The notes under the pieces are model-generated. The model saw only the letters and a program-made list of their open reading frames with translations, ran no database searches and was not told the origin of the DNA. From a virus (lineage: Duplodnaviria; Caudoviricetes): 28,944 bases of DNA. How positions within the stretch are numbered: position 1 is the stretch's first letter; every line of letters begins with the position of its first letter. Shown here in pieces: positions 3,392-24,335 of this stretch. Both the position numbers and the translations under genes were made by a program. Where the stretch lies: positions 1 through 28,944 of the IMG/VR virus record IMGVR_UViG_3300042857_000007, one strand, 5' to 3'.

Positions 3392-3424
3392 CTTTTACCT
3401 CAGGGTCGCCTGCTTGTAAAGCGA
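3392..3424 (-). promoter_or_regulatory. Early promoter family member
   Basis: TCGCTTTACA-N17-TAAAAG. Confidence 0.65.
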
Positions 3425-3429
3425 CTTTC

Positions 3430-3984: not shown

Positions 3985-3985
3985 G

Positions 3986-6732: not shown

Positions 6733-6737
6733 GCGGC

Positions 6738-6766
6738 AGCATAGCCTATGCGTCACGCCATGTCAG
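6738..6766 (-). promoter_or_regulatory. Putative promoter for a leaderless GNAT-like gene
   Basis: CTGACA-N17-TATGCT-gccgc-ATG. Confidence 0.5.
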
Positions 6767-7240
6767 GTACTGGCGTGCGGCGTCCCAACGCAGGTCCTCA
6801 CGGGTAATGCCACGGGCCAGCAACTCAGCTTCGGTAAGGCCGTCTTGGTAGAGCGCGTAGCGGCCATACGCCTTGCTGCCCTTCTGCTTGGGGTTGGGCA
6901 CGTGGCTGACCAGCACGCGGGCGGCCTTGGCGGCCCGTGCAACGGGGCTGCGTGGGCTGGGCTGGGCTGGCTTGGGCTGCACCTTGGGGTAGGGCTTGGG
7001 CTTCAACTGGGCGCTGTCAGGGCACTTGGTCAATATGCCCTTCAGGCACGCCGTGGCTATCATGGTGCGCAGATCGGTACTGCGCTCAAGCCGTGACAGG
7101 GCGGCCTGCGGCGGCAGCTTGTGCTGAATGAGTATCAGGTCAAGCGGCACGTCAGGCGTGGGCAGCGGCAGGCTCAGGGTCTTGCAGACGGCCTGTTGGT
7201 CAGTGGCGCACAGGCGCGCAAATGCGGCAGCTTCAATCAT
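6746..7240 (-). CDS. Hypothetical protein with C-terminal 'NPKK' module
   Basis: RBS GGATAGGAG; C-terminus VPNPKQKGSKAYGRYALYQDGLTEAELLARGITREDLRWDAARQYLTW. Confidence 0.8.
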   Translation of the reverse strand: MIEAAAFARLCATDQQAVCKTLSLPLPTPDVPLDLILIQHKLPPQAALSRLERSTDLRTMIATACLKGILTKCPDSAQLKPKPYPKVQPKPAQPSPRSPVARAAKAARVLVSHVPNPKQKGSKAYGRYALYQDGLTEAELLARGITREDLRWDAARQYLTWRDA

Positions 7241-7296
7241 ATCGGTTCTCCTATCCAACGGTTGCAAGCTTGTACCGGGATTTGCCCCGGCGCAAG

Positions 7297-7461
7297 TCAT
7301 TTCTGGGGCACGCAGACCAGCGCCCAGTCTTGGGTGTTCTCAAGCTTGGCGGCGGCGCGCTGGCAGGCGTGGTAGGTGGTGAATGAGCGGTCACTGGCCC
7401 GCTCACCCACGCACTCACCGCCATTGCCACAGATGGTGAGAATGACGATGACCCACGTCAT
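7297..7461 (-). CDS. 54-aa Cys-rich protein with hydrophobic N-terminus (MTWVIVILTICGNGGECV...), not in the ORF track
   Basis: ATGA overlap with the upstream gene; four Cys; signal- or anchor-like N-terminus. Confidence 0.55.
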   Translation of the reverse strand: MTWVIVILTICGNGGECVGERASDRSFTTYHACQRAAAKLENTQDWALVCVPQK

Positions 7462-8384
7462 GACAGCCGCAGCTTGGTGGCGCTGGTGCCCACGGCGGTG
7501 CCAAGGTGCACCTTGTTGCCCGCCGCCATGCCCGCCTCACGGGCGCTCAGGCTGCCGCTGGTGGCCACGGTGGTGGTCTTGGCCTTGCGCAGCTTGTGGT
7601 CACCCCACTGCTCAGCCACCACGGCGTTCTTGACCACCATCAGGCTCTGGCCGGTGGTGGTGACCAGCGTTTCCGTATGCCGCGCCTTCAGCATTTCCCT
7701 GATACGGGCGCTGACACGCGCCGTGTAGGCCAGCATGAAGTCATTGCGGGTGCGGCGGTGGTTGACGGCACGGGTGGCCTTGAAGGCGTCATAGCCACGG
7801 TCAGCCGCGCCCTCAATGACCCGCATCAGGTAGGTGGCCACTTCAACGTCAGCCGGGAGGCCGAAGAAGATGATCTGCCCTGTGCCGGTCTTGTGGTAGA
7901 CAATGCAGGCGCAGTAATCGGCAATGGCCTTGGCGCACCACTGGCTGGGGTGCGGCCGGGCGCGGTGCGCGCCGTGAATGCCGCTTTCACACTGTTCGGC
8001 CTTGATCTGGGTTTCAGACTGCTCAATGCCGTACTTGTCCATGAGTTCACCGGCCTTGGCAGCGGCGGCCATGGCCTCCTCTTCGGTACAGCCGTTCTCA
8101 ATGGTCTTGTTGAGCAAGGCCCTGATGCGGTTGACGGCGGCGCTGCGGTTGGCGGTGGGCGCTGCGGCGGTGGCGGCGCTGAAGCTGCTTTCACCGGCCG
8201 GTATGGCGATGAAGCCGCGCTTTTCGTCCCAGTGCAGGTCTTCACGCGTGCCACCGGCACGCAGGTATTCGCCCGGCGTCATGCCGTCTTTGTAGAGGTT
8301 GAAGCGGTGCCATGCCTTGCTGCCCACCTTCTTGGGGTTGGGCACCAGCACGCGTATGCGGGCAATAGGGGTCTTGAAGGCCAT
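7458..8384 (-). CDS. DUF2786-domain protein with N-terminal 'NPKK' module
   Basis: NRIRALLNKT...TEEEAMAAAAKAGELMDKYGI is the DUF2786 signature, followed by IFFG...DVEVA.Y and terminal G..AG motifs; GGAG RBS. Confidence 0.85.
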   Translation of the reverse strand: MAFKTPIARIRVLVPNPKKVGSKAWHRFNLYKDGMTPGEYLRAGGTREDLHWDEKRGFIAIPAGESSFSAATAAAPTANRSAAVNRIRALLNKTIENGCTEEEAMAAAAKAGELMDKYGIEQSETQIKAEQCESGIHGAHRARPHPSQWCAKAIADYCACIVYHKTGTGQIIFFGLPADVEVATYLMRVIEGAADRGYDAFKATRAVNHRRTRNDFMLAYTARVSARIREMLKARHTETLVTTTGQSLMVVKNAVVAEQWGDHKLRKAKTTTVATSGSLSAREAGMAAGNKVHLGTAVGTSATKLRLS

Positions 8385-8435
8385 ATCAGTTCTCCAGAGG
8401 TTGAAAAAGGCGCAGCCGGGTGGCCGCGCCTCAGT

Positions 8436-8469
8436 GTTCTAGCACGACTATCGTGCCGGTGTAAAGCGA
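8436..8469 (-). promoter_or_regulatory. Early promoter family member
   Basis: TCGCTTTACA-N18-TGcTAGAAC; the spacer is a palindrome (gcacga-tag-tcgtgc). Confidence 0.65.
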
Positions 8470-8471
8470 GT

Positions 8472-8861
8472 TTATGCGCAGCGGGCCTCAAGCACGTCAA
8501 GCTTGGGCTTGATGGCATCATAGATGCTGTTGGCCAGAGCGTTGTCAGTGTAATCCGCAATCACGTCATAGCCGTCATTGCCGTAGACCAGCATGAAGCT
8601 GGCGCTGGCGGTGCCGTCAGCGGTGCGGGCGCGCAGGGTGTCTTGGTCAGTGCTGGCCAGCGCGCACATGATGGCGTGGCGGTCTTGGCTGCCCTTCAGG
8701 CACCACTCACCACCGTCATGCACGCTGACGTTGAGGTTGCGGCGCAGGCATTCAACCACAAGGTAGCTGCAAGCCTGCTGCTCACTGAGCAGACGCTTGG
8801 CCAGATCATGGTGGCCGTTGGTGGTGGCACGTTCAGCGTAGGTGGTAAAAGCGGTTTTCAT
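8472..8861 (-). CDS. Hypothetical early protein (LVYGNDGYDVIADY motif)
   Basis: First gene of the minus-strand cluster; coherent codon usage. Confidence 0.8.
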   Translation of the reverse strand: MKTAFTTYAERATTNGHHDLAKRLLSEQQACSYLVVECLRRNLNVSVHDGGEWCLKGSQDRHAIMCALASTDQDTLRARTADGTASASFMLVYGNDGYDVIADYTDNALANSIYDAIKPKLDVLEARCA

Positions 8862-8922
8862 TGGTTCAGACCTTGTGTTGGTTGGTGTTGCGGGCTGCCG
8901 GGGGCACCCCCAATGAAGGTCG

Positions 8923-8951
8923 CTTTTAGCTCAAAGGGATATGCAGGTCAA
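8923..8951 (-). promoter_or_regulatory. Putative sigma70-type promoter of the early cluster
   Basis: TTGACC-N17-TAAAAG, preceded by GC. Confidence 0.55.
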
Positions 8952-9030
8952 GGGGCCTCAAACCGAATTGTAACACTATAATGCGTATACGTGAGAAGCC
9001 TTTTTGTCAGAGCACAAAAATTTTCATTTC

Positions 9031-9121
9031 AGTGTAAACAGTGTGAACAGTGTGAACAAGGACATAAATAATCATGCGGGCGCAGGGGTTAGGTTTTTCA
9101 CATTCACTTCACACTTCACAC
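9031..9121. repeat. Opposed arrays of short repeats in an AT-rich divergent intergenic region
   Basis: AGTGTAAAC/AGTGTGAAC/AGTGTGAAC (9031-9057) facing TTCACA/TTCAC/TTCACAC/TTCACAC (9097-9121). Confidence 0.8.
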
Positions 9122-9173
9122 ACATACGCATTATAGGGGGTTGGTATCCCCCGGTTGAGGCTAAAGTCCGCTG

Positions 9174-9203
9174 TTGCCAAGACCCCGGCTCTGCGCCTAT
9201 GCT
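9174..9203 (+). promoter_or_regulatory. Putative terS promoter (leaderless transcript)
   Basis: TTGCCA-N18-TATGCT-gccgcc-ATG(9210); no SD before the ATG. Confidence 0.55.
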
Positions 9204-9209
9204 GCCGCC

Positions 9210-9713
9210 ATGCCGCGCCGCCCACCGCAAGTGATGATCTACCAGCCCCGGTGGGGTGATGATGATTACATGCACAGGCCCAAGGACTTTGATCCCGGCA
9301 TAGCGCTGGCCATCATTGAGCGCATCATGAACGGTGAAACGCTCAACGCGGTTTGCAGCAATAATCGTGATTACCCGCTACCCGGCACGTTCCTGTTGTG
9401 GCTTGAGCAAGAGCCTGACATCAACGCCCGCTACCGCAGGGCCAAGGCCATTCAGACTGAGTTGCTGGTTGACGGCATGCTGGAAGACGGCAAGGCCGGT
9501 ACGTGGGATGCCAACGTGCGCATGCAGGCAGGCAAAGCCTACGTGGAAAAGACTGACCCCGCCCGCTACGGGCCAAAGGCCATGGTGTTCAACATGCCAG
9601 CGCCTGAGCCAGACCAGCCCAAGACTGACGCGGCGGCCAGCGTCAGGGCCAAGGTCAATCAGATGGTTGACCGCATGAATGCCCGTAAACGCAAGACAGA
9701 GGAAGCCAGCTAA
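9210..9713 (+). CDS. terS: Terminase small subunit (Sf6 gp1-like)
   Basis: IIERIMNGETLNAVC...P...TFLLWL.....ARYRRAK...P.RYG pattern; first gene of the packaging operon. Confidence 0.85.
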   Translation: MPRRPPQVMIYQPRWGDDDYMHRPKDFDPGIALAIIERIMNGETLNAVCSNNRDYPLPGTFLLWLEQEPDINARYRRAKAIQTELLVDGMLEDGKAGTWDANVRMQAGKAYVEKTDPARYGPKAMVFNMPAPEPDQPKTDAAASVRAKVNQMVDRMNARKRKTEEAS

Positions 9714-10186
9714 TGCCAGTCACCCTGCGCACCACCAACCGCGCCATCCAGCGCTTTGAGCCGGTCTACCACGGCAAGGGCAAGCACGCCTACGGCATCA
9801 AGCGCATCGGCAATGTCTACCGCGCCTACCGCATGAACAGCAGCCGGTACACCGGCATGAGCGCCAAGCAGGCAGATCACCCCACCAAGGCGGCGGCGCT
9901 GGCGTGGTGCCAGTCTGACTATGGCGTGGTGCGGCCGGGCACCATTGCGCCCACAACCACCACGGCCAGCTTTGTGCAGCCTGCCATAGGGGCCACGGTG
10001 CCTGTTCTGGTGACCAGCGCGGCCGGGCTGGTGGTGGGTCAGAACGTGACAATCGGCTCAGGCGGCAAGTATGAGATCACGGCCATTGCCGGGCTGAGCA
10101 TCACCTGCAAGAACCTTGGCACGGGTTCCATACCGGGCGTCACCATACCGACGGCGCAGGCGTTCACGGTGGTGGGCGCTTGGTGA
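9713..10186 (+). CDS. Hypothetical two-part protein: basic N-half and beta-rich T/V/G/A C-half (possible virion component)
   Basis: TAATG coupling to terS; TTTASFVQPAIGATVPV...GQNVTIGSGGKY resembles structural beta modules. Confidence 0.65.
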   Translation: MPVTLRTTNRAIQRFEPVYHGKGKHAYGIKRIGNVYRAYRMNSSRYTGMSAKQADHPTKAAALAWCQSDYGVVRPGTIAPTTTTASFVQPAIGATVPVLVTSAAGLVVGQNVTIGSGGKYEITAIAGLSITCKNLGTGSIPGVTIPTAQAFTVVGAW

Positions 10187-10470
10187 ACTTGGTGAACCTG
10201 CGGGCGGTTGATGCAGCGCCTGAGCCGCCAGCACAGCCGCCGCAGCCGGTCTACGTGGTCAAGGTGGCCATTCTCACGCCCAAGGGCAGGCTGCTGGGTT
10301 GCCTTGAGCGGCCATGGTCGGGGCCTGAGACAATCGGTGACTTGTGCAACAACCTGATTGCGGTGAATAAGGAACGTGCAGACCTAGACCATTGCCGCAT
10401 TGAGGTGCGCTGGGTGCGGCAGCGGTCTACACCAGATCACCCTGAGGCTGGTTCAGGCAACAGCGAATGA
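10180..10470 (+). CDS. Hypothetical protein
   Basis: Overlaps the upstream stop codon; exact start uncertain. Confidence 0.5.
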   Translation: MVNLVNLRAVDAAPEPPAQPPQPVYVVKVAILTPKGRLLGCLERPWSGPETIGDLCNNLIAVNKERADLDHCRIEVRWVRQRSTPDHPEAGSGNSE

Positions 10471-10539
10471 GCAAGCCCTGTGGGTGATGGCGCTAAAGGC
10501 AAGCTTCTGGCCCAGCCCGGCTGCAAGGCCGGGCACCCA

Positions 10540-10854
10540 TCAGTGGCGCAGGTTGAGGCCGGGCACCTTGATGCGGGTGCGCTTGCGCGCCTCCCTGATA
10601 TCAGCCCAGCCGCAGTAGATGCCCAAGGCTTTCTCCAGTGACAGCACAAGGCTGTTCACGTCATCGGGGCACGCCACGTCATCAGGTGACCATGGCGTGT
10701 AGGGCCGCGCCTCTGTGCTTTTGATGAGCGGCACGGGGCCGTTGCCACCATCCAGCACCAGCACAAAGCTGACCAGCAATGTGGCCTCCCCGGTTGGGGT
10801 GGTGCCGGGCTGGTCTGGCATGCGGTATAGCATCAGCGAGAGTTTCTTGCGCAC
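10540..10854 (-). CDS. Hypothetical protein on the opposite strand between terS and terL
   Basis: AAGGAG RBS and its own early-type promoter. Confidence 0.65.
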   Translation of the reverse strand: MRKKLSLMLYRMPDQPGTTPTGEATLLVSFVLVLDGGNGPVPLIKSTEARPYTPWSPDDVACPDDVNSLVLSLEKALGIYCGWADIREARKRTRIKVPGLNLRH

Positions 10855-10879
10855 GGTAAGTATACTCCTTCAAGTCAGA

Positions 10880-10913
10880 GTAATAACCTCCCGTTTGCAT
10901 AAATGTAAAGCGA
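10880..10913 (-). promoter_or_regulatory. Early promoter family member
   Basis: TCGCTTTACA-N18-TATTAC. Confidence 0.6.
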
Positions 10914-10950
10914 CCCACCGGGCTACGTAACGTAAATGATCACACGTCAG

Positions 10951-10979
10951 TTGCAATCAGGCGCGTTGGAATGTAGCTT
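10951..10979 (+). promoter_or_regulatory. Putative sigma70-type promoter for the sRNA and/or terL
   Basis: TTGCAA-N17-TAGCTT. Confidence 0.55.
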
Positions 10980-10985
10980 GTGCGC

Positions 10986-11079
10986 AGGGCTGTAATGGCC
11001 CAGAGGCTTAACAGCCTCCAGCCGCCCCCGTGGCATTGTACTCCTATCCAGAGGTTGACGCGGGGGTGGCTGTTATTAT
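10986..11079 (+). ncRNA. Candidate three-hairpin small RNA with an anti-Shine-Dalgarno loop
   Basis: Hairpins 10987-11001, 11003-11018 and 11019-11072 (14-bp stem, two G-U pairs); loop GCAUUGUACUCCUAUCCAGAGGUUGA; followed by UUAUUAU. Confidence 0.6.
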
Positions 11080-11118
11080 CATCATTTACCTTTCTGAGGG
11101 GGTAAAGGATCATATACT

Positions 11119-12546
11119 TTGAACGCCAACGTAGCCGTGGCGTCGTTGCTTGCTGAAATGCCCGCTCATGAGCGGGAAATCTTTTTTATGGGCCTTTCAC
11201 CTGAAGAGGCTGACTATCTGCTGTATGATTGGTCCTTTTGGGGCCGCCCAAGTCAGCAGGAGCCGCCCGGTGACTGGGCCGTCTGGGCCGCGCTGGCGGG
11301 CCGGGGCTACGGCAAGACACGCATGGGCAGTGAGTGGGTGCGGGCCATGATGTGTGGGCCTACGCCCATGGCGCGTGGTCGCTGCGGGCACATGGCGCTG
11401 GTGGCTGAGACAGCCGCCGATGCCCGTGATGTCATGGTGCAGAGCGCTGGCGGCATACTGAAGTGCCACCCACCTGAGTTCAGGCCCATCTACAAGCCCA
11501 GCCTGCGGCGTCTGGAGTGGCCCAACGGGGCCACGGCGCACACCTATAGCGCGGATGACCCTGAGCAGTTGCGCGGGCCTGAGCATGAGGCCGCTTGGTC
11601 AGATGAGTTGGCCAAGTGGCGCTATGCCCAAGAAACGTGGGACATGCTGCAATTTGGCCTGCGGGTGGGTGATAACCCCAAGCAGCTTGTCACCACGACC
11701 CCGCGCCCCATACCCCTGATCAAGGAACTGCTTGAGGCCCCCGACACCTACATCACGCGGGGCAGCACCTACGAAAACTATGAGAACCTAAGCCCGGCCT
11801 TCATCAAAAAGATGGAGACGCGCTATGAGGGCACGCGGCTGGGCAGGCAGGAACTGCACGCTGAGGTGCTTGATGACGTGCCGGGCGCGCTCTGGACCCG
11901 CCGCATGCTTGAGACGCGCAGCGCCACCAACCCCAACGGGGCGGGCATGCGCAAGGGCGAGGACCTGCCAGACATGGTGCGGGTGACGGTGGGCGTTGAC
12001 CCGTCTGGTACGTCAGGTGAAATCAGCATGCGCCGCACTGAGGTGCGCGGTGGTGACCATGAGGATGAGGCCGGTGATGACATCGGCATTGTGGCGGCGG
12101 GCCTTGGTGATGACGGCATGATCTACGTGCTGGATGACGCCACGGTGAACTGGGGGCCTGCTGACTGGGCGCGCCGCGTGGTGCAGACCTACAAGAACCA
12201 TGAGGCAGACATGATCGTGGGTGAGGCCAACTTTGGCGGGGCCATGGTTGAGCATACCATCCGCACTGTTGACCGCAGGGTGCCGTACCGCGCCGTGCAT
12301 GCAAGCCGGGGCAAGGCAGTGCGTGCAGAACCCATTGCGGCGTTGTATGAACAGGGCCGCGTGCGCCACGTCTATGGCAAGCCCCTGAGCAAGCTAGAGG
12401 ACCAGATGATCTACATGACCCAGCGCGGCTATGAGGGTGCGGGCAGTCCTGACAGGCTTGACGCGGCGGTGTGGGCCATCACTGACCTGATGTTTGGCAA
12501 GAGCGCCAGAGGCGGCACCGTGGCGCTGCGCGGAGGGCACCACTGA
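11119..12546 (+). CDS. terL: Terminase large subunit (Terminase_6 type)
   Basis: Walker A AGRGYGKT, LRGP, Walker B AAWSDE, TTTP, nuclease VGVDP and SPDRLDA; TTG start. Confidence 0.97.
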   Translation: MNANVAVASLLAEMPAHEREIFFMGLSPEEADYLLYDWSFWGRPSQQEPPGDWAVWAALAGRGYGKTRMGSEWVRAMMCGPTPMARGRCGHMALVAETAADARDVMVQSAGGILKCHPPEFRPIYKPSLRRLEWPNGATAHTYSADDPEQLRGPEHEAAWSDELAKWRYAQETWDMLQFGLRVGDNPKQLVTTTPRPIPLIKELLEAPDTYITRGSTYENYENLSPAFIKKMETRYEGTRLGRQELHAEVLDDVPGALWTRRMLETRSATNPNGAGMRKGEDLPDMVRVTVGVDPSGTSGEISMRRTEVRGGDHEDEAGDDIGIVAAGLGDDGMIYVLDDATVNWGPADWARRVVQTYKNHEADMIVGEANFGGAMVEHTIRTVDRRVPYRAVHASRGKAVRAEPIAALYEQGRVRHVYGKPLSKLEDQMIYMTQRGYEGAGSPDRLDAAVWAITDLMFGKSARGGTVALRGGHH

Positions 12547-14165
12547 TGGCCAAGTCAACGCTGAAGGTGGTCAAGCCTGAGCCGGAGCCTATCAAGGGCA
12601 ACGTCAAGGAAAAGCACCCTGATCTGGCCATGATCTGGGAGGACTGGCAAGAATGCCGTGACACGGTGGCCGGGGCCACTACCATCAAGAGCAGGGGCGA
12701 GGCCTACCTGCCCATGCCCAGCGGCTTCAAGGGTAGCACCGCGCCGCAGGTCATGTATGACGCCTACAAGAAGCGGGCGCAGTTCCCTGACATGGTGGCA
12801 CCCACCATTCAGGGCATGCTGGGCATCATCCACCAGTCAGAGGCGCAGATTGAGGGCCTTGATGAGGGCACCGCGCTGGCTGACATGTGGGAAAACGCCA
12901 CGCCTGACGGCCTGACGCTTGAGGCGCTGCACCGCAAGATCACTGAGGAGATTTTGACGGTGGGCCGGGTGGCGCTGCTGGTTGACCTGCCGCCTGAGGG
13001 CGGTGAACTGCCGTGGATTGCCTTCTACCGGGCAGAAAGCCTGATCAACTGGTCTGAAAGCCGGAACTTCTTTGTGCTGGAAGAAGATTACCGAGTACGC
13101 AACGGCTATTCTTGGGAAGGCAAGCAACGCTACCGGGTGCTTGAACTGGTGGATGATACCTATCAGGTGCAGGTGCTGGCTGAAGACGGCACGCCGCTGA
13201 CTGAAAATGATGACACCACTGACCAAGACGTGGCTGAGGGCGTTGCCACCAGCGTGGTGGTGCCGCAGGCGCGGGGCGGTGACCAGTTGGGTGAGATACC
13301 GCTGGTGATTGCTGGCAGCCGCGACCTGAGCCTGCCCCCTGACCAGATACCGCTCATAGGCGTGGTGCGCAGCGCCAGCGCCATCTACCGGCTTGACGCA
13401 GACTACCGACACCAGCTTTTCATGAGCGGGCAGGAGACCTTGTTCTATATTGGGCTGGATAAAGCTGACGTGCCTGACTACGTGGGCGCTGGCGTGGGTA
13501 TAGCCATACCTGAGGGCGGCGATGCCAAGTACGTAGGCCCCAGCGGCAGCGGCATTGCCGCCCACAAGACAGCCATTGAGGATGAGCGGGCCAATGCCGC
13601 TGAGGCAGGCAGCCGCATGTTTGCGGTGGGTGACAAGAAGGCGGCTGAAAGCGGTGAGGCCCTGCGCATACGGGCGCGGGCTGGCAGCGCCACCCTTATC
13701 AGCGTGGCGCAGACATCAGCGGCGGCGCTTGAGAAGGCGCTGCGCTACTGCGCGCTCTTGGTGGGTGAAGACCCGGAAGAGGTAATAGTAAAACCCAACC
13801 TTGGCTTCCTTGACAGTGACATGACCGCTGAAGAGGCCAACAAGATGACAGAACTGTGGATGAACAAGGTCATCAGCTATGAAACCCTGTACAACAATCT
13901 TCAGCGTGGCCGCATTGCATCGGAGGAGCGAACCGCAGAGGAGGAGCAAGAGTTGGTGGCTGAAGAGGAATCTGCGGCAGTACCCGAAGGTGATGTGGCA
14001 ACTAGCGGGGGAACTGAAGTGCCGTTGGCTGTGGACCTGTCAGAGGGCACCGGCACAGATGAGTACGGCCCGGTAAGCCAAGCTGAGATTGATGAACTGT
14101 TTGCGCCTGAAGAGATTACGCCGCCTGAGCCTGAGCCTGAGCCTGAAGGGGGAGTGCAGCCATGA
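12546..14165 (+). CDS. Portal protein (DUF4055-type)
   Basis: Directly after terL; YLP.P, Y.AY..RA.F and ESGEALRIR motifs; acidic tail. Confidence 0.9.
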   Translation: MAKSTLKVVKPEPEPIKGNVKEKHPDLAMIWEDWQECRDTVAGATTIKSRGEAYLPMPSGFKGSTAPQVMYDAYKKRAQFPDMVAPTIQGMLGIIHQSEAQIEGLDEGTALADMWENATPDGLTLEALHRKITEEILTVGRVALLVDLPPEGGELPWIAFYRAESLINWSESRNFFVLEEDYRVRNGYSWEGKQRYRVLELVDDTYQVQVLAEDGTPLTENDDTTDQDVAEGVATSVVVPQARGGDQLGEIPLVIAGSRDLSLPPDQIPLIGVVRSASAIYRLDADYRHQLFMSGQETLFYIGLDKADVPDYVGAGVGIAIPEGGDAKYVGPSGSGIAAHKTAIEDERANAAEAGSRMFAVGDKKAAESGEALRIRARAGSATLISVAQTSAAALEKALRYCALLVGEDPEEVIVKPNLGFLDSDMTAEEANKMTELWMNKVISYETLYNNLQRGRIASEERTAEEEQELVAEEESAAVPEGDVATSGGTEVPLAVDLSEGTGTDEYGPVSQAEIDELFAPEEITPPEPEPEPEGGVQP

Positions 14166-14581
14166 GCATGCCCGGTGACTACCCGCTGGAAATCTACCAC
14201 GGTGACAGCTATCACTGGCAGTTCAAGCTGTGGATTGATGAGGCCAAGACGCAGGCGCTTGACCTGACGGGCGCGGTGGTCAAGGCTGAAATCCGTGACA
14301 AGCCTGCCGGGCTGGCCATCTTTCCCCTAGACTGTGAGGTGAGCCTGCCCAACATCATTGAGGCCATTCTACCGGCCAGCCTGAGTGACACGCTGCCCAT
14401 TGCCTCTGACATGGTGTGGGATATTCAGATAACCTTTCCAGACGGTAGCGTGAACACGTTGCTGTCAGGCAAGGTCAAGGTCACGCAGGATGTCACTGAC
14501 GCTGTTGACCCCGGCGCAGCGCGCAGCGGCGGCACGGTGAAGGTGATGCAGCCCCAGTTGGTGAGGGCACCGCGCAGATGA
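14162..14581 (+). CDS. Putative virion structural or fibre-attachment protein
   Basis: LEIYHGDS...[14 protein letters not shown]...WDIQ...TLLSGKV beta-sandwich pattern typical of proteins preceding fibre genes. Confidence 0.65.
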
Positions 14582-17500
14582 ACAAGATCATTACCGATTT
14601 GGTGGTGATTGAAAGTACCGCCACCACCGTTGACATCACGGTGCAGCCGGGGCCGCTGGTGGAGATTGTGCAGCCCCCGGCCATCTATGTGGAAATTGGT
14701 GACATAGGCGGGCCTGTTGGGCCGCAGGGGCCGCAGGGCATACCCGGCCCGCAGGGCTTGCAGGGCCTGCCGGGCACCGGGTTCATCATCAAGGGCAGCG
14801 TGCCCACCTATGACGCGCTGCCGGTAGCGCCCGCGCCCAACCCCTACGATGGCTGGGTCACTGATGACACTGACCACCTGTGGGTGTGGAACGGCTATGA
14901 GTGGGTTGACTGCGGTGACCTGAGCGGTCCCCCCGGACCTACCGGCGCGCAGGGCAACACTGGCCAGACCGGCCTTGAGGGGCCGCTTGGCCCGGCTGGG
15001 CCTGCTGGGCCTACCGGCCATGAGGGGCCGCAGGGGCCTCCGGGTGAACAGGGTGAGGTGGGCTATCAGGGGCCTATCGGCCCGCAGGGCGCGTCTGGTC
15101 TGGGCGTCAACTTCAAGGGCACCGTGCCCAACGCCAGCATGCTGCCCGCAGGGGCCGCAGCCAATGACGGCTATGTCACGCTTGACACCGGCTACACGTG
15201 GGTGTGGACGGGCGGGGCGTGGATCAACGTGGGCATCATTCAGGGGCCGGTTGGTCCCATGGGGCCGCAGGGCAATGCCGGGCCGCAGGGCAACCCCGGC
15301 CCGCAAGGCATTCAGGGCAATCAGGGCTTGCAGGGTGACCAAGGCGCGCAGGGGCCTGCCGGTGTTGACGGCGCGGCCGGGCCGCAGGGCGCGCCCGGTT
15401 CAAATGGTGAGCAAGGCCCGCCCGGCTCACAGGGGCCGCAGGGGCCTACCGGCGTGCAGGGGCCTGTGGGGCCTGTAGGCACCACCGATTACGATGACCT
15501 GACCAATGTGCCCAGTGAGTTCCCGCCCGCTGAGCATGCGCACGCGCAGACAGATATTGCGGGCTTGGTTGAGGATCAGGCGGCGCAAGACGCGGCCATT
15601 GCGGCGCTGATGAGCGGCAAGGAGCCTGTCATAGCGGCGGGCACCGCCACCCAGTATTGGTCAGGACTCAAGTCTTGGCTGACCTTGGACAAGGCCGCCG
15701 TTGGTCTTGGCAATGCTGACGATACCAGTGACGCCAACAAGCCCATCAGCACAGCCACCCAGACCGCGCTGAATACAAAGGAGAATACTGCCAACAGGGG
15801 CGTAGCCAACGGCTACGCGCCGCTTGACGGCAGCGCCAAGGTGCCTGCCGGTTATCTGCCCGCCTATGTGGATGACGTGATTGAGGCGGCCAGCTTTGCG
15901 GCGCTGCCCGCCACGGGCGCGGCGGGCGTTATCTACGTGACGCTGGATACCAACAAGACCTACCGCTGGTCAGGCACCGCTTACGTTGAAATCAGCCCTT
16001 CACCGGGCAGCACAGATGCGGTGCCTGAGGGCAGCATCAACAAATACTTTACCGATGCCCGTGCCATTGCTGCCGTGCCTGTGAAGGAAGTTGCTGACGG
16101 CCAGAACTATGTGCGCACGCTGGGCGCGTGGGTGCTGGGCTACACCAAGGCCGCCGTAGACGCGCTGGTGGCGCTGTACCTGCCGCTGACGGGCGGCACC
16201 CTGACCGGCAGGCTCAACACCAAGGCCAGCAGCGCCACTGAAGCGGGCTTGAACCTGATACCCGGCGTTGCGCCCACCGCGCCTGTCACTGGTGATTTCT
16301 GGGCGACCACCGGGGGTTTCTACGGGCGCGCCATTGGCGTCACCAAGGGGCCGTTCGTAGATACGGGTGATCTGGCCACCAAGGCCAATGCGTTTCACAC
16401 GCACCCGCAGGCGGATGTCACCAATCTGGTCAGTGATCTGGCGGGCAAAGCCCCCACCGTGCACGGCCATGCGCAGGCGGATGTCACCAATCTGGTCAGT
16501 GATCTGGCGCTGAAGGCCCCGCTGGCCAACCCGGCGCTCACGGGCGTGCCCACAGCGCCCACGGCGGCGCTGGCCACCAACACCACGCAACTGGCCACCA
16601 CGGCGTTTGTGCAGGCCGCCATGGCCTTGGCCGGTGATCTGCCGCTGATGGTGGGGGCTGCTGACGGCAGCACTGATCTGGATACCATCCAGACCGCAGG
16701 CTGGTTTGACAAGCTGCTGGGCAGCGCCAACGCCCACCTGCCGGTGAGTGGCAATTACTTCTACGTCCAGACGCTGGTCTATGCGGCAGGCGCGCTGACG
16801 CAGGTGGCATACCCCTACAGCACGCAAGCCACCATCAGTCTGGGCATCTACGTGCGCGGCCTGTACGGCGGCGTCTGGTCACCGTGGAACAGGTTGAACC
16901 TTGACGCCACCAAGCTGCCGCTGACGGGCGGCACGCTGACCGGCAACCTCACCATAGACCCCGCCAACGGCATGGCCGGGGTCTCCTGTAGCAGCGCTGA
17001 CAGCCATTCTTATCTGGTATTGGATAAGGGCATTGTTGGTGCGTATAGCTACATAGACGGGCGGTACGCAGGCAAAGTGCGCTGGCGCATGATCTTGGGT
17101 GAGGCCACCGCTGAGGCTGGCAGCAACGCTGGCTCAAACTTTGTGCTGCAAGCTTATGACGATGCAGGCACCGCCGTCGTAGCCAACGCCCTGAGCATTG
17201 CGCGCAGCACGGGCGTGGTCACCATGCCGGGCGCTATCATCCCCACCCGCCCGGCCGGTGACGCCACAGGCTACGCGGCCAACACGGCCTTTGTCACCGC
17301 TGTGGATGTGCTGAAGGCCCCGCTGGCCAGCCCGGCCTTCACGGGCGTGCCCACCGCGCCTACGCCTGCGGTGACCAGCAACGACAACACCCTAGCCACC
17401 ACGGCGTTTGCCACCTACACCGCGCCGCCCGGCCTGATAGGCTTCTTTGCGCGCAGCACCGCCCCCACGGGGTGGATTGCGGCCAATGGCGCTTTGCTCA

Positions 17501-18105
17501 ACCGCACCACCTACGCCATTCTGTTTGCGGCCATAGGCACCGTCTTTGGCGCGGGTGACGGCACCACCACCTTTGGCATACCTGACCTGAGGGGTGAGTT
17601 CCCGCGTGGTTGGGATAACGCCAGAGGCATTGACGCGTCACGCGTGTTCGGCTCCCTACAGCTTGACGGCATTGAGACGCACACCCACCCGTTCACCGGC
17701 AGCGCCATGGCCACCCATGACCACGGCCTGACGGTGGGTGCCAACAGCGTTGGCCACACCCACAGCTTTGCCGACAACTCAAGCGCCACCGGCAACGCCA
17801 GCGCCAACCACCAGCACACCATGACGGGCCGCATTCCTAACACCACCGTCGCCAACGGCTTTGGCATGGGTAGCGGCGTCCTTTATAGTGACAACCCGCT
17901 GACATCAGCCAGCGGCGCGGCGCACACCCACACGGTGGCGGTGGCGGGCACCTCTGGCGGCATCAGCGCCAACCACGTGCATACAATCGACATCACAGCG
18001 GTGAGTGCGGGCACCCCGGCAGGCACCGTGGGTGCCAACACGGGTGCCGTCACTGAAACCCGGCCGCGCAACGTTGCACTACTGGCATGCATCAAGTATT
18101 GCTGA
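14578..18105 (+). CDS. Fibre protein with collagen-like G-X-Y blocks, fibre repeats, tail-collar domain and HxH tip
   Basis: Three GPQ-rich blocks; [10 protein letters not shown] and [17 protein letters not shown] repeats; collar [10 protein letters not shown]...[18 protein letters not shown]; multiple HTH/HDH; [15 protein letters not shown] end. Confidence 0.92.
16406..16509 (+). repeat. Exact 38-bp direct repeat within the fibre gene
   Basis: cgcaggcggatgtcaccaatctggtcagtgatctggcg at 16406-16443 and 16472-16509. Confidence 0.9.
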
Positions 18106-18112
18106 GGACCCC

Positions 18113-18375
18113 ATGGCCAACCCACCCATCGTATACCACTATCACCGTGACACGGGCGTCTATCTCAACGCCAGTTCTGCGGCTGACCCTGACCCCATGG
18201 ATGAGGACAACTGGCTTTACCCGGCCAACAGCACCACCAAGATACCGCCCAGCCCACACCGCCGCCACCGAAACCAACGCACGCCGAGAACGTCAAGAAC
18301 GCGCCCAAGACCATGTTGGTGAGGGGGCCGTGGATCAAAGATGTTCTGACAGGTGAAACTGTAGACAGAGGATAA
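18113..18375 (+). pseudogene. Tail-fibre assembly chaperone (Tfa-like), apparently frameshifted or internally deleted near 18250
   Basis: N-terminus VYHYHRDTGVYL...ADPDPM...WLYPANSTTKIPP is Tfa-like; the in-frame continuation looks out of register, while the -1 frame runs PTPPPPKPTHAENVKNAPKT... to TAA 18373-18375 just before the next gene. Confidence 0.6.
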
Positions 18376-18381
18376 ATAACC

Positions 18382-18711
18382 ATGCCTTCATTGGAAGTTG
18401 TACAGGCCGCCTCTGACCCTGACTTCTACACGCGGGTCAGTTTCCTTGCGCTGAAGACGGCGCAGAACGTGGCGTCTGAAGACGGCAGCGCGCCCAACCA
18501 CACTGAGCGGGTTGACTATGCCAACCGGGTGTTCAGGGGCGATGACAATGCGGCGTTGCTGGCGCAGCACGTGGCCACCAACCCGTCAATAGGCGCAAAG
18601 CTTGAGGCGGGTGAGCCGGTGCCAGACGGTGACATTGAGTTTGCGCTGGCCAGCATCTGGGACGCCCGCGCCACCGCCTTCTACGTGCCGCCGCCCAACC
18701 CCTCACCGTGA
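18382..18711 (+). CDS. Hypothetical protein (likely fibre-associated)
   Basis: AGAGGA RBS; coherent codon usage; position after the fibre and chaperone. Confidence 0.75.
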   Translation: MPSLEVVQAASDPDFYTRVSFLALKTAQNVASEDGSAPNHTERVDYANRVFRGDDNAALLAQHVATNPSIGAKLEAGEPVPDGDIEFALASIWDARATAFYVPPPNPSP

Positions 18712-18723
18712 GGTTAGCCCGCC

Positions 18724-21474
18724 ATGGCCAAGCTGAGACTGGGCAAGAAGCTGCACATGAGCCGTGGGGCCACCCATGCGCGCATGCAGTTTCAGGAGGC
18801 CAAACACAAGCGTGACGTGAGCGGCAAGTTCGCTGAGATGCCCGGCCAGATGCCGGGTGCTGACGGCACCACCGCCGCCGCCAAGGTCACGGTGACCCCG
18901 GCCACCACGGCTGATTGGATGGCCGGTGCCAAGACCAGCAAGGTGGGCGGTGATGACCTGATCAAGCTGCACGTGCAGAGCAACCCCAAGAAGCCGGGCA
19001 GCGCGGCGGCTGAGCGCTTTGCCAAGTATCAGGACGGCATGACCGTGGCCGAATACAAGGCGGCCGGGGGCACCGCTGAAGATTTGGCATGGGACCGCAA
19101 GCGTGGCTTTGTGACCTTTCACGATAAGGCCACCTACGCCAGCATCAGCACCAGCGGGGCCAGCCCGGTTGCGCAGATCAACCACGCCACCGCCACCGGG
19201 CGGCTGGCCAGCATCAAGGCGCAGACTGAGGCCAAGGCGGGCGCGGCCACTGAGGCGGTGAAGCCGCCACCGCCTGAGGTGCCCATCAAGGCGTCTGGTG
19301 AGCCGCCTGAGCCGCCAGCACCACCCAAGCCGGTAGAAGCGGCCCCTAAACCGGCCGCTGCGGCCCCAGCCAGCCCCGCCAGCGTGCAGAAGCCGCCAGC
19401 AGGCCCTGAGCCAGCCCCCAAGCCACAGAACGCGCCTACGGGCACGCCTGAGCCTGCCAAGACGTTCTACAAGCCAGCGCCAGCGCCAACGGCGCTCAGT
19501 GATGACACCATGGTCAAGCACTGGGCCAGCAAGCAGCCGGTCACCATGGCTGAGTACAAGGCCAGCCTCGGCACCAATCTGGGCAAGCACACCCCTGACA
19601 GCTTTGTTCAGCAAAGCTTGCAGAATGGCGATCTGAAGGTGGTGACCCCTGCGGCTGTGCCCAAGCAGCCCAAGCCCACTGACCCGGCTGAGACGCTGAC
19701 CTTCAAGAAGGGTGATACGCTGGCCGACACCAAGCTGAACGGCGTTGAGATGCGGCCATGGCAGCCGCCCAAAGACGCCGAGGGCTGGAAGAACGTTGAC
19801 GGCCAGATGCACCTGCCTGATGAGCCGCCCATGCCCACCATGGGCAAGCTGGGCAGTGGCGTGCTGATCAGGGAGCCTGACGGCCGGGTGTGGGTGGTCA
19901 AGCCCACCAATGAGTTTGGCGGCTACAAGCACACCTTCCCCAAGGGCACCATAGACAAGCATGAGGGCCTGTCACCGCAGGCCAACGCTATCAAGGAGAC
20001 CTTTGAAGAAAGCGGCCTGAAGGTGAAGATCACCGGATTTGCCGGTGACTTCCAAGGTGACACGGGCGTGGCGCGCTACTACTACGGCCAGCGCACTGAC
20101 GGCACGCCGCTTGACCACGGGTGGGAGAGCGAGGCCGTTCTGCTGGTGCCGCCCGGCAAACTCAATACCGTCCTCAACAAGAAGCGTGACTTGGACATTG
20201 CCGCCAAGCACCTGCCAGACATCACGCCTGACCCTGACCAGTTGGCGACGCTCAAGGTCAGCGTCAAGCCGCAGACGCCGCATGACGTGCCTGCCGAGAC
20301 GGGGCGCTGGGGCAAGGCGGCCAGCGTCAAGGCGTCTGTGGCCACGGCGGCCCCGCCCCAGAACTGGGACACCAGTTCTGTGATGACTGACGTGCAGAAG
20401 CAGGAGATGCGCTATGTGCGTGACGCCACCGGCCTGAAGTACCATAGCGGAGATGACAATGAGGCCGTGGGCTTCTACACCTATGACGGCCATGAGGATA
20501 TCAACGGCGGCCTGCGCGTGGGTGGCACGCTCAGCCCTGAGGCCGCGCAGCATGTGAAGACGCTTGACGGCATGATGGCTGAGACGGCCAATGACGTGGT
20601 GGTGTGGCGCGGCATGAAGAGTGCCGGTCTAAATGGCGAGTTCAACACATTCAACACAATGCCACCGCCCATGGAGTTCGTTGACCCGGCCTATGGCAGC
20701 ACCAGCATCAACCCTGCGGTGGCGCACCAGTTTGCCGGTGGCCACATGGGCAAGACAGTGGTGTTCAAGGTGCGCGTGCCCAAGGGCACCAAGGCCATGA
20801 GCGTTGGCCGTGAGGGTGACGTGCGTGAGGGTCTGCTGGATGAGGCTGAAATAGTGCTGGCACGCGGCACGCGCTACAAGTACGTGACCACGCACACCAA
20901 TCAGACCGTTGCTGGGGAAAACGTCAACGTCATTGAGTTGACCGTGGTCAGCAACAACGGCGCGCCTGTAACGCAGCAGATCAAGCTGCCCAAGAAGATG
21001 CCGGATAACCACCGCTATGAGGCTGATGAACTGGTTGATCTGCCCGCCGCCAAGGTGGCTGATGAAGGCGCGGCGGGCCTGAAGTGGGAGTACGAGAAAG
21101 AGTACCACCAGTACGGCGGCCACTCATGGGTCACCAGCCAAGGTGGCACCGGCATCACCAATCAGGCAGACTTCAACAAGCGCTATGCTGAAGCGCCCCT
21201 GACCTATCTCACCAATGATCAATACGATAATCTTGGCTACACCAGCATCAACACTAAGAAGTTGCCCACCTTTGCCAGCGTGGCACCGGGCCTGAAGCAG
21301 CGTAACCGTGACCCCGATGCCATGCGTGACCGCATGCTGAGCGATGACGGCGTGACCACGCCGCCCATAGTGCTGCGTAAGAACGGCAAGCTGCGGCTGA
21401 TGGCTGGCCAGAGCCGCATCTGGGTTGGCTTGGCCACTGGTTACAGGGTGCCTGTCAAGGTACTGGAGGTCTGA
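18724..21474 (+). CDS. Multidomain protein A: NPKK module + Nudix hydrolase + R-S-E ADP-ribosyltransferase (VIP2/Alt-like) + ParB/Srx-like C-terminus
   Basis: Nudix box FPKGTIDKHEGLSPQANAIKETFEESGL (~19935-20019); ART YT....INGGLR, VWRG, YGSTS, VPKGT, DEAEIVLARG (~20470-20950); C-terminal PPIVL.....LMAGQSR.......VPV. Confidence 0.88.
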   Translation: MAKLRLGKKLHMSRGATHARMQFQEAKHKRDVSGKFAEMPGQMPGADGTTAAAKVTVTPATTADWMAGAKTSKVGGDDLIKLHVQSNPKKPGSAAAERFAKYQDGMTVAEYKAAGGTAEDLAWDRKRGFVTFHDKATYASISTSGASPVAQINHATATGRLASIKAQTEAKAGAATEAVKPPPPEVPIKASGEPPEPPAPPKPVEAAPKPAAAAPASPASVQKPPAGPEPAPKPQNAPTGTPEPAKTFYKPAPAPTALSDDTMVKHWASKQPVTMAEYKASLGTNLGKHTPDSFVQQSLQNGDLKVVTPAAVPKQPKPTDPAETLTFKKGDTLADTKLNGVEMRPWQPPKDAEGWKNVDGQMHLPDEPPMPTMGKLGSGVLIREPDGRVWVVKPTNEFGGYKHTFPKGTIDKHEGLSPQANAIKETFEESGLKVKITGFAGDFQGDTGVARYYYGQRTDGTPLDHGWESEAVLLVPPGKLNTVLNKKRDLDIAAKHLPDITPDPDQLATLKVSVKPQTPHDVPAETGRWGKAASVKASVATAAPPQNWDTSSVMTDVQKQEMRYVRDATGLKYHSGDDNEAVGFYTYDGHEDINGGLRVGGTLSPEAAQHVKTLDGMMAETANDVVVWRGMKSAGLNGEFNTFNTMPPPMEFVDPAYGSTSINPAVAHQFAGGHMGKTVVFKVRVPKGTKAMSVGREGDVREGLLDEAEIVLARGTRYKYVTTHTNQTVAGENVNVIELTVVSNNGAPVTQQIKLPKKMPDNHRYEADELVDLPAAKVADEGAAGLKWEYEKEYHQYGGHSWVTSQGGTGITNQADFNKRYAEAPLTYLTNDQYDNLGYTSINTKKLPTFASVAPGLKQRNRDPDAMRDRMLSDDGVTTPPIVLRKNGKLRLMAGQSRIWVGLATGYRVPVKVLEV

Positions 21475-24335
21475 TGCCCGGCCTGAAGCTGAAGCTGAAG
21501 ACAGCTACCAAGATTTCAAAGGGTGCCCACGGCGTCAAGATCAAGTGGGACATGAACAAGCACAAGCGCGACCAGATGACTGGGCGCTTTGTCAACAAGC
21601 CCGGCTCTGAGGAGTTCAAGGCTGAGCCTTTCGGCCCCGGCAAGACGGGCAACATCAAGGGCACCGATGTCATCAAGCTGCACGTGACCAGCAACCCCAA
21701 GAAGCCGGGGTCAAAGGCCAATGCAGACTTTGAGAATTACAAGGATGACATGACGGTAGCCGAGTTCAAGGCCGCCGTGGGCAACAACACCAAGGCCAAC
21801 GAGCACCTGACCTATGACACCAAGAAGGGCTTCATCACCATACACGACCCGGCCACGCTGCCCGCCAAGCCGCTGGCCCAGCCTGAGCCGCCGCCGCCAC
21901 CCAAGCTGACCACGGCCGAGTACGCCATCACCAGCAAGACCAAGAACCTGCAACCGCACGACAAGATCAAGCTGCTGGCCGGGCACAACCCCAAGAAGCC
22001 GGGCAGCAAGTCTGCGGCCCTGTTCTCAAACTACAAGGATGAGATGACGGTAGCTGAGTTCCACGCCGCCATTGGCAACAAGAAGGCCAGTCAGGAGACG
22101 TTGCTCTACGACCTCAAGAAGGGCTTCATCAGCGTGCACAACGGCGCTGATCTGGCTGACATGCAGAGCGGCAAGCTAAGCCCCGGCAAGCTGGCGGCGC
22201 ACATGCAGACAGGTGACAAGGCCCTTGGCGTGGTCAGCAAGAACCCGTTCACCGCAGGCACCAAGAATTATCAGGACTTTGAGGACGCCGCCTTTGACCA
22301 AGGTTTGGTCACGCAGGCCAAGGTGACGGCCAGCGTTGACCCGGCCACGGGCGCGCCCAAGCCCAAGCTGGCTGATCTGGATGACAATGACATCATCACC
22401 AGCCAGACCGGGGCAACCTACAACGCAAGCCTGCTGAAGAGTGACCCGGACCCTGTCTTCAAGAAGGTGGTGGATGACAATCTTGCCAGTGGCAAGTGGA
22501 CCGTCAAGCCCAAGCCCGTTACACTTATGGATACTGACAAGGTATCCGTGAAGGGCGGCAGCATGATCAGCAGCACCAAGTACACCGTGGCTGAATACAA
22601 GGCCATCACCGGCATGACTGACGCGCAGGTGCAAAGCGCCCTGAGCGCTGGCAAGCTGCACCTGCACCCGCCTGAGGCTGGCGCGCCCGCGCCCAAGCCC
22701 GCCACGCCCACGCCTGCGCCCGCGCCCAAGCCGCTGCCCAAGCAAAGCGTTGAAGATGACACCGTGGTGCAGACCATGGGCGGCACCGTCTACACGGCGG
22801 CTGAGTACAAGGCCAAGTGGAAGGCCAACGGCCTGTCAGATGAAGATGTGATCAACAAGCTGAACAACAACATCGCCAGTGGCGTACTTGTGGTCAAGAC
22901 CAAGAGCAAGTTTGCTGACAATGACGTGGTTGAGACGTACTTTGGGAATAAATACACCATAGCCCAATTGAAGGCCAAGTATCCGCATCACACTGATGAT
23001 GATATTCAGGAGCAGCTTGACAACGGTGACCTGTCATTTGTGGCCAAGCAGCCCCCGCCGCCCCAGCCCAAGTCTACACCCACGCTTGACGCCCTGCATG
23101 ATGATGATGTCATCGTCAACAGCATGGGCGTGGTCATGATGTCAGCGGGTGGGGCCAAGAAGCTTGAGACAGCCTCAAAGACTGCCGTTGAAGATGCGCT
23201 GGCCAGCGGCGCATGGAAGAAAGAAGGGGCCTCCCCAGCTGCGCTGACCAAGCTGTCACAGATACCCAAGGCTGAGTGGGACACCCATGACGTTGCCACC
23301 ATCACGGCGGCCAACCCCTACCCGGCAAATTCTGAGGCGTGGATCAAGTTCAAGAAAATCCATAATACATCAAGCGGCACTCAGAGCATGAGTGTGACAA
23401 AATACATGTCATCCACCACCAACGTGGGCACGCAAGAGGCGGTGCTTGATAAGATGGTGGCTGACGGTCACGTCAAGTTTGTCACGCCCGCGCAGAAGAC
23501 CGCCGTGCAGGCGCAGAAGGCCCTGTTACAGCAACAGGCCGCTGCTGAGGCCACCAAGAAGGCGGCTGCCACAGCCGCTGCGCAGAAGACCAAGTGGAAT
23601 GCGCATTTCCAAGTGGTGAAAGAAAAGTCCATAGCCCAGTTCACTGATGACCCCACGTGGGGCAGCAAGCCGGGCAACATGCTGCCCAGCCAAGTCAAGC
23701 AGAGCGGTATGGTGGCCGTCAAAAACATCATGGGCCTGAAGTACCACAGCAACAGCAAGTACGCTGGCGTGGCTTGGTATACCAACGGCGGCTACAGCGC
23801 GGCTAATGAAAAGCTGCGCAACCCCAAGCTGGGTCATGCCCATTTGAACAGTGAGCAGAAGGGCCACGTCAAGGAACTTGACAGCTTGATGTCTGAAACC
23901 AAAGAAGACGTGGTGATGTGGCGTGGTATCAGCGAAAGCAGTGATACGGTGCCTACGGCCGATGCGCAGGGCAACATGAACAACATGCCACCACCGTTTG
24001 AGTTTGTTGACGGCGGCTATGCCAGCATGAGTTTCAACCCACGGGTGTCTGATAGCTTCAAGGGTTATTCCACCACGCACGCCAGCGGCAGCACCTATTC
24101 ACAAACGGGCAAGCGCCGCACGCTGTTCAAGATGCGTATACCCAAGGGCAGCAAGGCGGCGTTTGTGGGCCGCAAGTATAGTCAGGACTTGGCTATGGAA
24201 GATGAGGCTGAGGTGATCACGGCGCGGGGCACGCGCTTCAAGTACATCAGCACCACGCGTGATGTGGATTTCTATGGTGCCAAGTATGACATCATTGAAC
24301 TGGAGATTGTGAACCACGCTGGCGGCAATATCTGA
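21474..24335 (+). CDS. Multidomain protein B: repeated NPKK and related modules + C-terminal R-S-E ADP-ribosyltransferase
   Basis: ART WYTNGGYSAANEKLR, MWRG, YASMS, IPKGS, EDEAEVITARG (~23770-24335); TGATG-coupled to protein A. Confidence 0.88.
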   Translation: MPGLKLKLKTATKISKGAHGVKIKWDMNKHKRDQMTGRFVNKPGSEEFKAEPFGPGKTGNIKGTDVIKLHVTSNPKKPGSKANADFENYKDDMTVAEFKAAVGNNTKANEHLTYDTKKGFITIHDPATLPAKPLAQPEPPPPPKLTTAEYAITSKTKNLQPHDKIKLLAGHNPKKPGSKSAALFSNYKDEMTVAEFHAAIGNKKASQETLLYDLKKGFISVHNGADLADMQSGKLSPGKLAAHMQTGDKALGVVSKNPFTAGTKNYQDFEDAAFDQGLVTQAKVTASVDPATGAPKPKLADLDDNDIITSQTGATYNASLLKSDPDPVFKKVVDDNLASGKWTVKPKPVTLMDTDKVSVKGGSMISSTKYTVAEYKAITGMTDAQVQSALSAGKLHLHPPEAGAPAPKPATPTPAPAPKPLPKQSVEDDTVVQTMGGTVYTAAEYKAKWKANGLSDEDVINKLNNNIASGVLVVKTKSKFADNDVVETYFGNKYTIAQLKAKYPHHTDDDIQEQLDNGDLSFVAKQPPPPQPKSTPTLDALHDDDVIVNSMGVVMMSAGGAKKLETASKTAVEDALASGAWKKEGASPAALTKLSQIPKAEWDTHDVATITAANPYPANSEAWIKFKKIHNTSSGTQSMSVTKYMSSTTNVGTQEAVLDKMVADGHVKFVTPAQKTAVQAQKALLQQQAAAEATKKAAATAAAQKTKWNAHFQVVKEKSIAQFTDDPTWGSKPGNMLPSQVKQSGMVAVKNIMGLKYHSNSKYAGVAWYTNGGYSAANEKLRNPKLGHAHLNSEQKGHVKELDSLMSETKEDVVMWRGISESSDTVPTADAQGNMNNMPPPFEFVDGGYASMSFNPRVSDSFKGYSTTHASGSTYSQTGKRRTLFKMRIPKGSKAAFVGRKYSQDLAMEDEAEVITARGTRFKYISTTRDVDFYGAKYDIIELEIVNHAGGNI

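Follow-up and report, generated by a model that had tools for sequence, protein, structure and literature searches.

The 28.9 kb stretch of DNA analyzed here (hereafter the window), which is the entire virus record IMGVR_UViG_3300042857_000007 with an estimated completeness of 35%, encodes five clear copies of a module of about 55 amino acids (aa) with a conserved NPKK loop. We found that this module is a real, large, unnamed domain family, and that its genes in other phages are linked to DNA base-modification operons, a link that is strong but confounded and that lies beyond what the preliminary description of the window, made from the sequence alone, had been able to show. According to its partners, gene slot, charge, and conservation, the module might be a portable DNA-binding tether that tolerates the major-groove modification of the carrier phages' DNA, and we favor this reading tentatively, with a little less than even confidence.

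Module Copies in the Window

Two of the five copies lie on the minus strand, one at the C-terminus of a leftward-block protein of ~164 aa (6755..6919; open reading frame (ORF) 6746-7240/7300; E 1.3e-25) and the other at the N-terminus of a DUF2786+DUF7168 protein (8202..8360; gene 7458-8384; E 2.3e-27). The remaining three are on the plus strand, in protein A (18961..19122, residues ~80-133; E 2.4e-30) and in protein B (first copy 21669..21845, E 2.2e-26; second copy 21963..22139, E 3.5e-24). With a 47-row profile, all five were recovered at E 2e-30 to 4e-24, with 50-63% identity to the protein-A copy, and the three copies of A and B scored 74-93 bits, compared with no more than 6.5 bits in locally shuffled A and B (600 shuffles). 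These profile values and shuffle controls bear out the five places at which the copies had been described. The copies indeed belong to four proteins, but calling the four architectures unrelated was a slight overstatement, given that an H-x-R-D...G-[RK]-F motif and an ADP-ribosyltransferase (ART) domain are common to A and B.

Degenerate copies had also been suggested in protein B, near 22240 and 23310. Scored singly, they fell short of significance (2.0 and 0.4 bits, respectively), but profiles of homologues recovered the latter at full length (23280..23489, plus strand; HHalign 93.6%, E 2e-7) and the N-terminal half only of the former (22218..22325, plus strand; HHalign 72%, E 3e-5). Nine control windows without overlap to any copy gave 4.3% or less, and three overlapping true copies gave more than 99%. 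In the AlphaFold model of full-length B, the order of strands and helices in the 23310 copy equals that of the clear copies.

Size and Range of the Domain Family

Profile searches of Pfam, PHROGs, NCBIfam, and PDB with 47 members yielded no named family for the module (best E 0.04, for single members only), in agreement with its unassigned status in the preliminary description, and likewise none for the module in three short carriers and the window proteins. Weak and partial matches to RRM_YTH1, YcnI, and DotG were rejected. In the ESM Atlas, the module matched only unnamed viral clusters and none of the named ones. A literature search returned no description of it, within a reach that did not extend to the Iyer 2013 base-modification paper or to the online domain lists of PMC5512222, which could name it.

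The 47-row profile matched 6,169 of 1.84 billion cluster representatives (50% identity) at E <=0.001 and 2,717 at 1e-10; the best 150 of the 6,169 were examined. The module is mostly C-terminal and preceded by K/R/A/P-rich linkers: this position was found in 190 of 286 stored carriers, which are top matches rather than a random sample and include 27 proteins of at most 100 aa and 249 of at most 350 aa. Complete phage genomes contain one to seven copies, and the earlier view of the module as mobile is supported. Among 50,697 cultured phage records, gp18 of phiJL001 was the only carrier. Scanning 185,579 prokaryote genomes with a pattern, at limited sensitivity, gave three loci, which suggests that cells and prophages seldom have the module. 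Phages are not its sole carriers, as one carrier (P0100) stems from a eukaryotic transcriptome set.

The partners among 137 top matches were PHD fingers (four), Rho_N (two), and TAGT (one, weak), and further weak matches concerned Tudor and NucS. The weak NucS match (P0088, E 0.002) is the one sign of a fusion to an endonuclease domain, and the window has none. The four PHD-finger carriers, for which the data do not state the source organisms, are called eukaryote-type proteins here; 16 eukaryote-type module rows cluster in the module tree, without starred support (89/96). P0066 and P0100, both eukaryote-type, possess two modules each together with weak matches to DNA-modifying domains, namely TAGT and a tail resembling HMUDK, the kinase of 5-hydroxymethyldeoxyuridine (5-hmdU) in DNA; the HMUDK-like tail of P0066 is weak (11.6%, E 0.003, no Pfam match). 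Three further assignments were abandoned: a uracil-DNA-glycosylase-like domain in P0114 and an HNH-like domain in L053, both seen by eye, were not confirmed, and no resemblance between the N-terminus of L013 and a YuA-like protein could be found.

Three loci contain clusters of three to four different small module genes within 3-8 kb (L170:822-1423 and 3983-4150, L040:4915-12341, L045:3921-11795). In a gammaproteobacterial metagenome-assembled genome, the module forms the N-terminus of an ABC ATPase encoded in a branched-chain-type transporter operon (L054:4920-6020).

Association with DNA Base-Modification Genes

The genomic surroundings were studied in 36 carrier records, which comprise most of the records behind the module loci plus phiJL001. 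The helical domain of 5-hmdU DNA kinase (PF18723, HMUDK_hel) was present in 18 of them, including eight of the nine near-complete ones. Enzymes of this class start thymidine hypermodification by phosphorylating 5-hmdU in DNA, and accounts of phage DNA hypermodification present it chiefly as a steric shield against nucleases (PMC8989533). For comparison, phiJL001 gp19 was matched by 208 of 50,697 cultured phage records, in a single-protein search that is less sensitive than searching with the PF18723 family. A module gene lies no more than 1.3 kb upstream of the HMUDK gene, on the same strand, in 17 of the 18 records, the exception being 7 kb away. When only records of at least 40 kb were considered, it was found upstream within 1.3 kb in 14 of 14, versus a random mean of 0.55 and a maximum of 6. 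The reverse search gave a module in seven of the best 80 of 562 HMUDK loci, all at 39-1645 nt upstream, and at least two of the seven were already in the carrier set.

Other modification genes accompany the module as well. A thymidylate-synthase-family gene occurs in 23 of the 35 viral carrier records, and the module gene is positioned between helicase and base-modification genes. A standalone 70-aa module gene precedes an unassigned gene, whose product looks glycosyltransferase-like by eye, and genes for a P-loop kinase and a CMP/dCMP-hydroxymethylase-like enzyme (best PDB matches). In L193, a C5 methyltransferase gene follows the module gene. The ninth near-complete genome, G029, encodes ThyX, QueC, QueF, and FolE above cut-off and QueD and QueE more weakly, these genes lying within ~10 kb of the module gene; a DpdA-like ORF of the same genome had no family match and was discarded. 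The glycosyltransferase-like, P-loop kinase, and CMP/dCMP-hydroxymethylase-like genes characterize a phage group (L011:8160-10754 and the relatives L010, L020, L027, L028, L030, L033, and L063), suggesting an undescribed putative pathway of 5-hydroxymethylcytosine (5hmC) glycosylation. In the complete relative G003, the HMUDK gene spans the contig ends (G003:C1:55-426 and 78460-78948).

The cultured model for the module is Gp18 of phiJL001, a phage of Alphaproteobacteria, whose gene abuts the HMUDK gene gp19. It contains the same domain (Foldseek TM 0.96, 36% identity) as a single C-terminal copy with no enzyme attached; no functional study of Gp18 was found in the literature listing. At a permissive threshold (E up to 1), 71 cultured records contain the N-terminal domain of Gp18. 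In Pseudomonas phage Epa5 this domain is followed by DUF3489 (PF11994) rather than the module, and the gene heads a modification cluster, so that DUF3489 takes both the C-terminal slot and the cluster-head place of the module. Three other examples end in small domains without Pfam matches; the winged-helix look of the C-termini in RsoM2USA and Wifcevirus, seen by eye, likewise had no Pfam match and was not retained. About seven carriers of the Gp18-type N-terminal domain were recognized by eye and only one of the 286 stored carriers fits the strict pattern, so the argument from slot swapping rests on few cases. PF11994 itself matched none of the 47 alignment members.

Predicted Fold and Conservation

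AlphaFold2 predicted a compact fold for the isolated module (predicted local distance difference test score 95), which consists of a strand (2-5), the long NPKKxGS loop, three helices (17-22, 31-36, and 41-50), and a strand (53-56). Together with a net positive charge in 39 of the 47 modules, this model agrees with the earlier description of a basic, small alpha/beta domain. Across the 47 rows, N10 and P11 are invariant, and K12 (45/47), Y25 (46/47), D47 (45/47), and R21 (36/47) are highly or largely conserved. The third helix is acidic, with D43 and D47, a feature that speaks against ordinary insertion into the major groove.

Foldseek found no match for the module in the PDB. VIA-align gave a best Z of 5.7, with rows including PriA 115-177, subunits of GATOR1/SEA, many helix-turn-helix (HTH) regulators, and peptide-binding or protein-interaction domains such as MccB, TbtB, and the PbtF RRE; we take the matched segments to be winged helices. 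The weak likeness to winged helices (PriA 6dgd 115-177, HTH regulators, the Z-DNA-binding domain of ZBP1) would lie in a small three-helix core with short strands, and the PriA alignment covers 57 residues at 2.5 A with Z 5.2. The module differs from them in having no sequence similarity, in its order (strand-loop-helix-short strand-helix-helix-strand), and in its acidic third helix. The earlier proposal of a winged-helix-like fold stands as a loose likeness (Z <=5.7), but not in the C-terminal wing, since the model has a single strand instead of a beta-hairpin after helix 3 and another strand at the N-terminus. The predicted fold may represent a permuted form of the winged helix.

Possible Functions of the Module

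If the module is a DNA-binding tether, the basic NPKK loop and the end of helix 1 would contact DNA and the acidic third helix would stay out of the major groove, so that binding would tolerate bulky C5-pyrimidine or 7-deaza groups. The copies in the window would then hold A and B, with their ART and Nudix domains, on the genome, and both proteins would be packaged and ejected with it to act from the onset of infection. Its role in the two leftward-block proteins could simply be that of a DNA-binding end, and no shared ART circuit would be needed.

Such a circuit had been part of the preliminary description, in which the module was a targeting domain that ties early and ART proteins into one competing or relieving system. 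The targeting role is retained to the extent that partners and gene slot make DNA binding probable, but the common circuit is not. In seven of the nine near-complete carrier genomes the module occurs only in frames of at most 316 aa with no long carrier, and it is therefore not primarily an accessory of ARTs. In addition, the copies of the window cluster with orthologues of other phages in the module tree: those of A and B form one starred group with theirs (97/88), and each of the two leftward-block copies joins its own (95/86 and 98/91), with the deeper branching order unsettled on 57 columns.

Several observations weigh against a tether for modified DNA. No base-modification gene is present in the window, which is a 35% fragment, and modification of the DNA of its phage is deduced from the relatives G003 and G017, which have the same A/B layout and encode HMUDK and a thymidylate-synthase-family gene; head packaging of A and B is likewise deduced, from gene position only. 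Among the best 80 HMUDK loci, 73 have no module within 6 kb (seven of the 73 end short upstream), none of five cultured HMUDK phages has it, and the module is dispensable for hypermodification. The Que genes of G029 could serve tRNA rather than DNA. The module gene also follows SNF2 or UvrD helicase genes (eight helicases confirmed), so that it may instead be tied to a common replication block, and the carriers are not independent of each other in descent. The ABC-ATPase fusion has no evident DNA role and fits no DNA reading, and the predicted likeness to winged helices is suggestive only, with Z in the range of common arrangements.

A broader reading, which we regard as somewhat unlikely, is that the module is a chemistry-independent self/non-self sensor, operating across derivatives of 5-hydroxymethyluracil (5hmU), glycosyl-5hmC, 5-methylcytosine, and 7-deazaguanine, that aims proteins including injected ARTs and has been adopted by some eukaryotes as a chromatin reader. 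In its specific form, judged unlikely, the module would bind only DNA with an unmodified major groove, so that effectors are sent to the host chromosome, or new unmodified phage DNA is marked, and the mature genome is spared. Such a single negative readout would cover the co-occurrence with four chemistries and goes along with the PHD fingers on eukaryote-type copies and with the sensing of non-methylated CpG by some eukaryotic winged helices (PMC11037411). However, it is hard to reconcile with the proposed packaging of A and B together with modified DNA, and most modified-DNA loci examined have no module. According to PMC11037411, the winged helices of DpnI, HhiV4I, and KAT6A are, like the module, small and variously fused, and theirs read the modification state of DNA; DpnI and HhiV4I are nuclease-fused 6-methyladenine sensors and the KAT6A type senses unmethylated CpG, whereas phage carriers of the module are mostly non-enzymatic, and no homology between them was shown.

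It is decidedly unlikely that all copies dock on one host protein complex, such as RNA polymerase, in a protein-binding variant of the earlier proposal that early carriers compete with or relieve the ARTs. The presence of MccB, TbtB, and the PbtF RRE among the top VIA-align rows, the R-S-E and E-x-E signature of the ARTs, and the ABC-ATPase fusion are in line with docking, but an ART in the same polypeptide is missing from most carriers, the module also occurs in eukaryote-type proteins, and the link to modification operons is left unexplained.

There is little probability that the module is a positive reader of 5hmU or its hypermodified products that draws its partners to phage DNA. Its tight adjacency to the 5-hmdU kinase gene, the eukaryotic carriers with the weak TAGT match and the weak HMUDK-like tail, and a conserved aromatic residue next to D47 would fit, but close members stand at the head of a dCMP-hydroxymethylase-like operon, before a C5 methyltransferase, or in a genome that has ThyX and 7-deazaguanine genes. 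A sequence-specific transcription regulator, by which the small carriers would govern the modification operon or early promoters, is equally improbable, for although the module gene is the first of the cluster in many genomes (standalone forms of 68-74 aa included) and is swapped with DUF3489, up to seven copies per genome occur in unrelated proteins, including head-region enzymes, and an acidic helix occupies the usual recognition position.

How phages handle or recognize their own modified DNA has been little studied. A domain of 55 aa that comprises over 6,000 sequence clusters, tied to several modification chemistries and to eukaryote-type chromatin modules, makes self-DNA recognition testable. 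If the module discriminates modified DNA, it would be a new class of reader; if it does not, it would still be an unannotated family of DNA tethers that deserves a domain model.

Proteins A and B

Protein A (18724..21474, plus strand; 916 aa) consists of the H-x-R-D motif, the module, an acidic half-repeat, a Nudix domain (19852..20163; PF00293, E 1e-8), an ART domain (20446..20937; PF03496, E 6e-11) with R629, S659-x-S661, and E707-x-E709, and a conserved C-terminal domain (21031..21471). The latter is common to P0026, P0027, P0029, and P0031 and has no match in Pfam, its ParB/sulfiredoxin-like appearance being a judgment by eye. In relatives of A, Nudix, ART, and other domains interchange behind the constant H-x-R-D motif and module. 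Protein B (21474..24335, plus strand; 953 aa) contains the H-x-R-D motif, two modules, the half copy, five acidic half-repeats, the degenerate module, a long helix, and an ART domain (23745..24257), in which R817, S851-x-S853, and E911-x-E913 are invariant in 17 homologues. Both ART domains match PF03496 above cut-off and keep the R, S-x-S, E-x-E (R-S-E) signature, and the ART fold of B matches C3/VIP2 enzymes in Foldseek.

The acidic repeats are absent from the preliminary description. The one in A (19489..19650, residues 256-309) scored 44 bits, compared with no more than 5 in shuffles, and the five of ~48 aa in B (22371-22514, 22518-22673, 22743-22904, 22905-23048, and 23088-23231, plus strand) are profile matches that fold as strand-strand-helix-helix-strand in the AlphaFold model. 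Their similarity to the C-terminal half of the module is weak (HHalign 59%, E 9e-5), and an iterated profile of them recovered 57 stretches in long stored carriers versus none in 230 shuffles. We infer that they are derived copies of the module minus the NPKK loop and helix 1.

The genes of A and B sit among head genes, between those of the portal (12546) and the scaffold (25026). In this position, in their VIP2/C3-type ARTs, and in their variable domains, A and B resemble T4 Alt, the head-packaged ARTs of the Alt/VIP2 type, and polyvalent proteins (PMC5512222 and PMC9503650). A additionally has the Nudix domain, and the nearest analogy to the module is the "header" role proposed there for ArdC-N; the constant N-terminal H-x-R-D and NPKK modules set A and B apart, being absent from the descriptions in the parts of those papers considered. 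MuF (PF04233) had no match in A or B and is a separate gene in G003.

The H-x-R-D...G-[RK]-F motif lies in the basic N-terminus of both proteins (18805-18831 and 21561-21590, plus strand). It was found upstream of the module in 26 of the 286 stored carriers, all of at least 188 aa, and the N-terminus that bears it weakly matches a portal-protein PHROG; it is a candidate capsid-packaging signal.

Other Features of the Window

The genes of the window run from a leftward block of small genes through terminase, portal, and a collagen/collar tail-fiber gene to A and B, followed by scaffold, major capsid protein (~53% identical to its SPP1 counterpart), and adaptor. According to this layout, the leftward block would represent early genes. 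Its gene at 1795-2499 (minus strand) has a weak KptA/Tpt1-like N-terminal match (ART superfamily, E 0.004-0.007) and is possibly a third ART-fold gene of the window. Directly downstream of the 6746 carrier, the ORF at 6250-6756 (minus strand) gave a weak match to GNAT acetyltransferases (E 0.04).

In the region that separates the leftward block from the small terminase gene, we identified an inward-facing 23-nt inverted pair (8976-8998 and 9114-9136; 87%) with a TATAAT box in each arm, which may form convergent promoters or an operator pair. Finally, a 17-mer with a TTTACA core is repeated at 3412-3428, 6290-6306, and 8457-8473 (minus strand), and the score of the copy at 6298 is that of a promoter of the sigma-70 type with an extended -10 element; these repeats are candidate early promoters.

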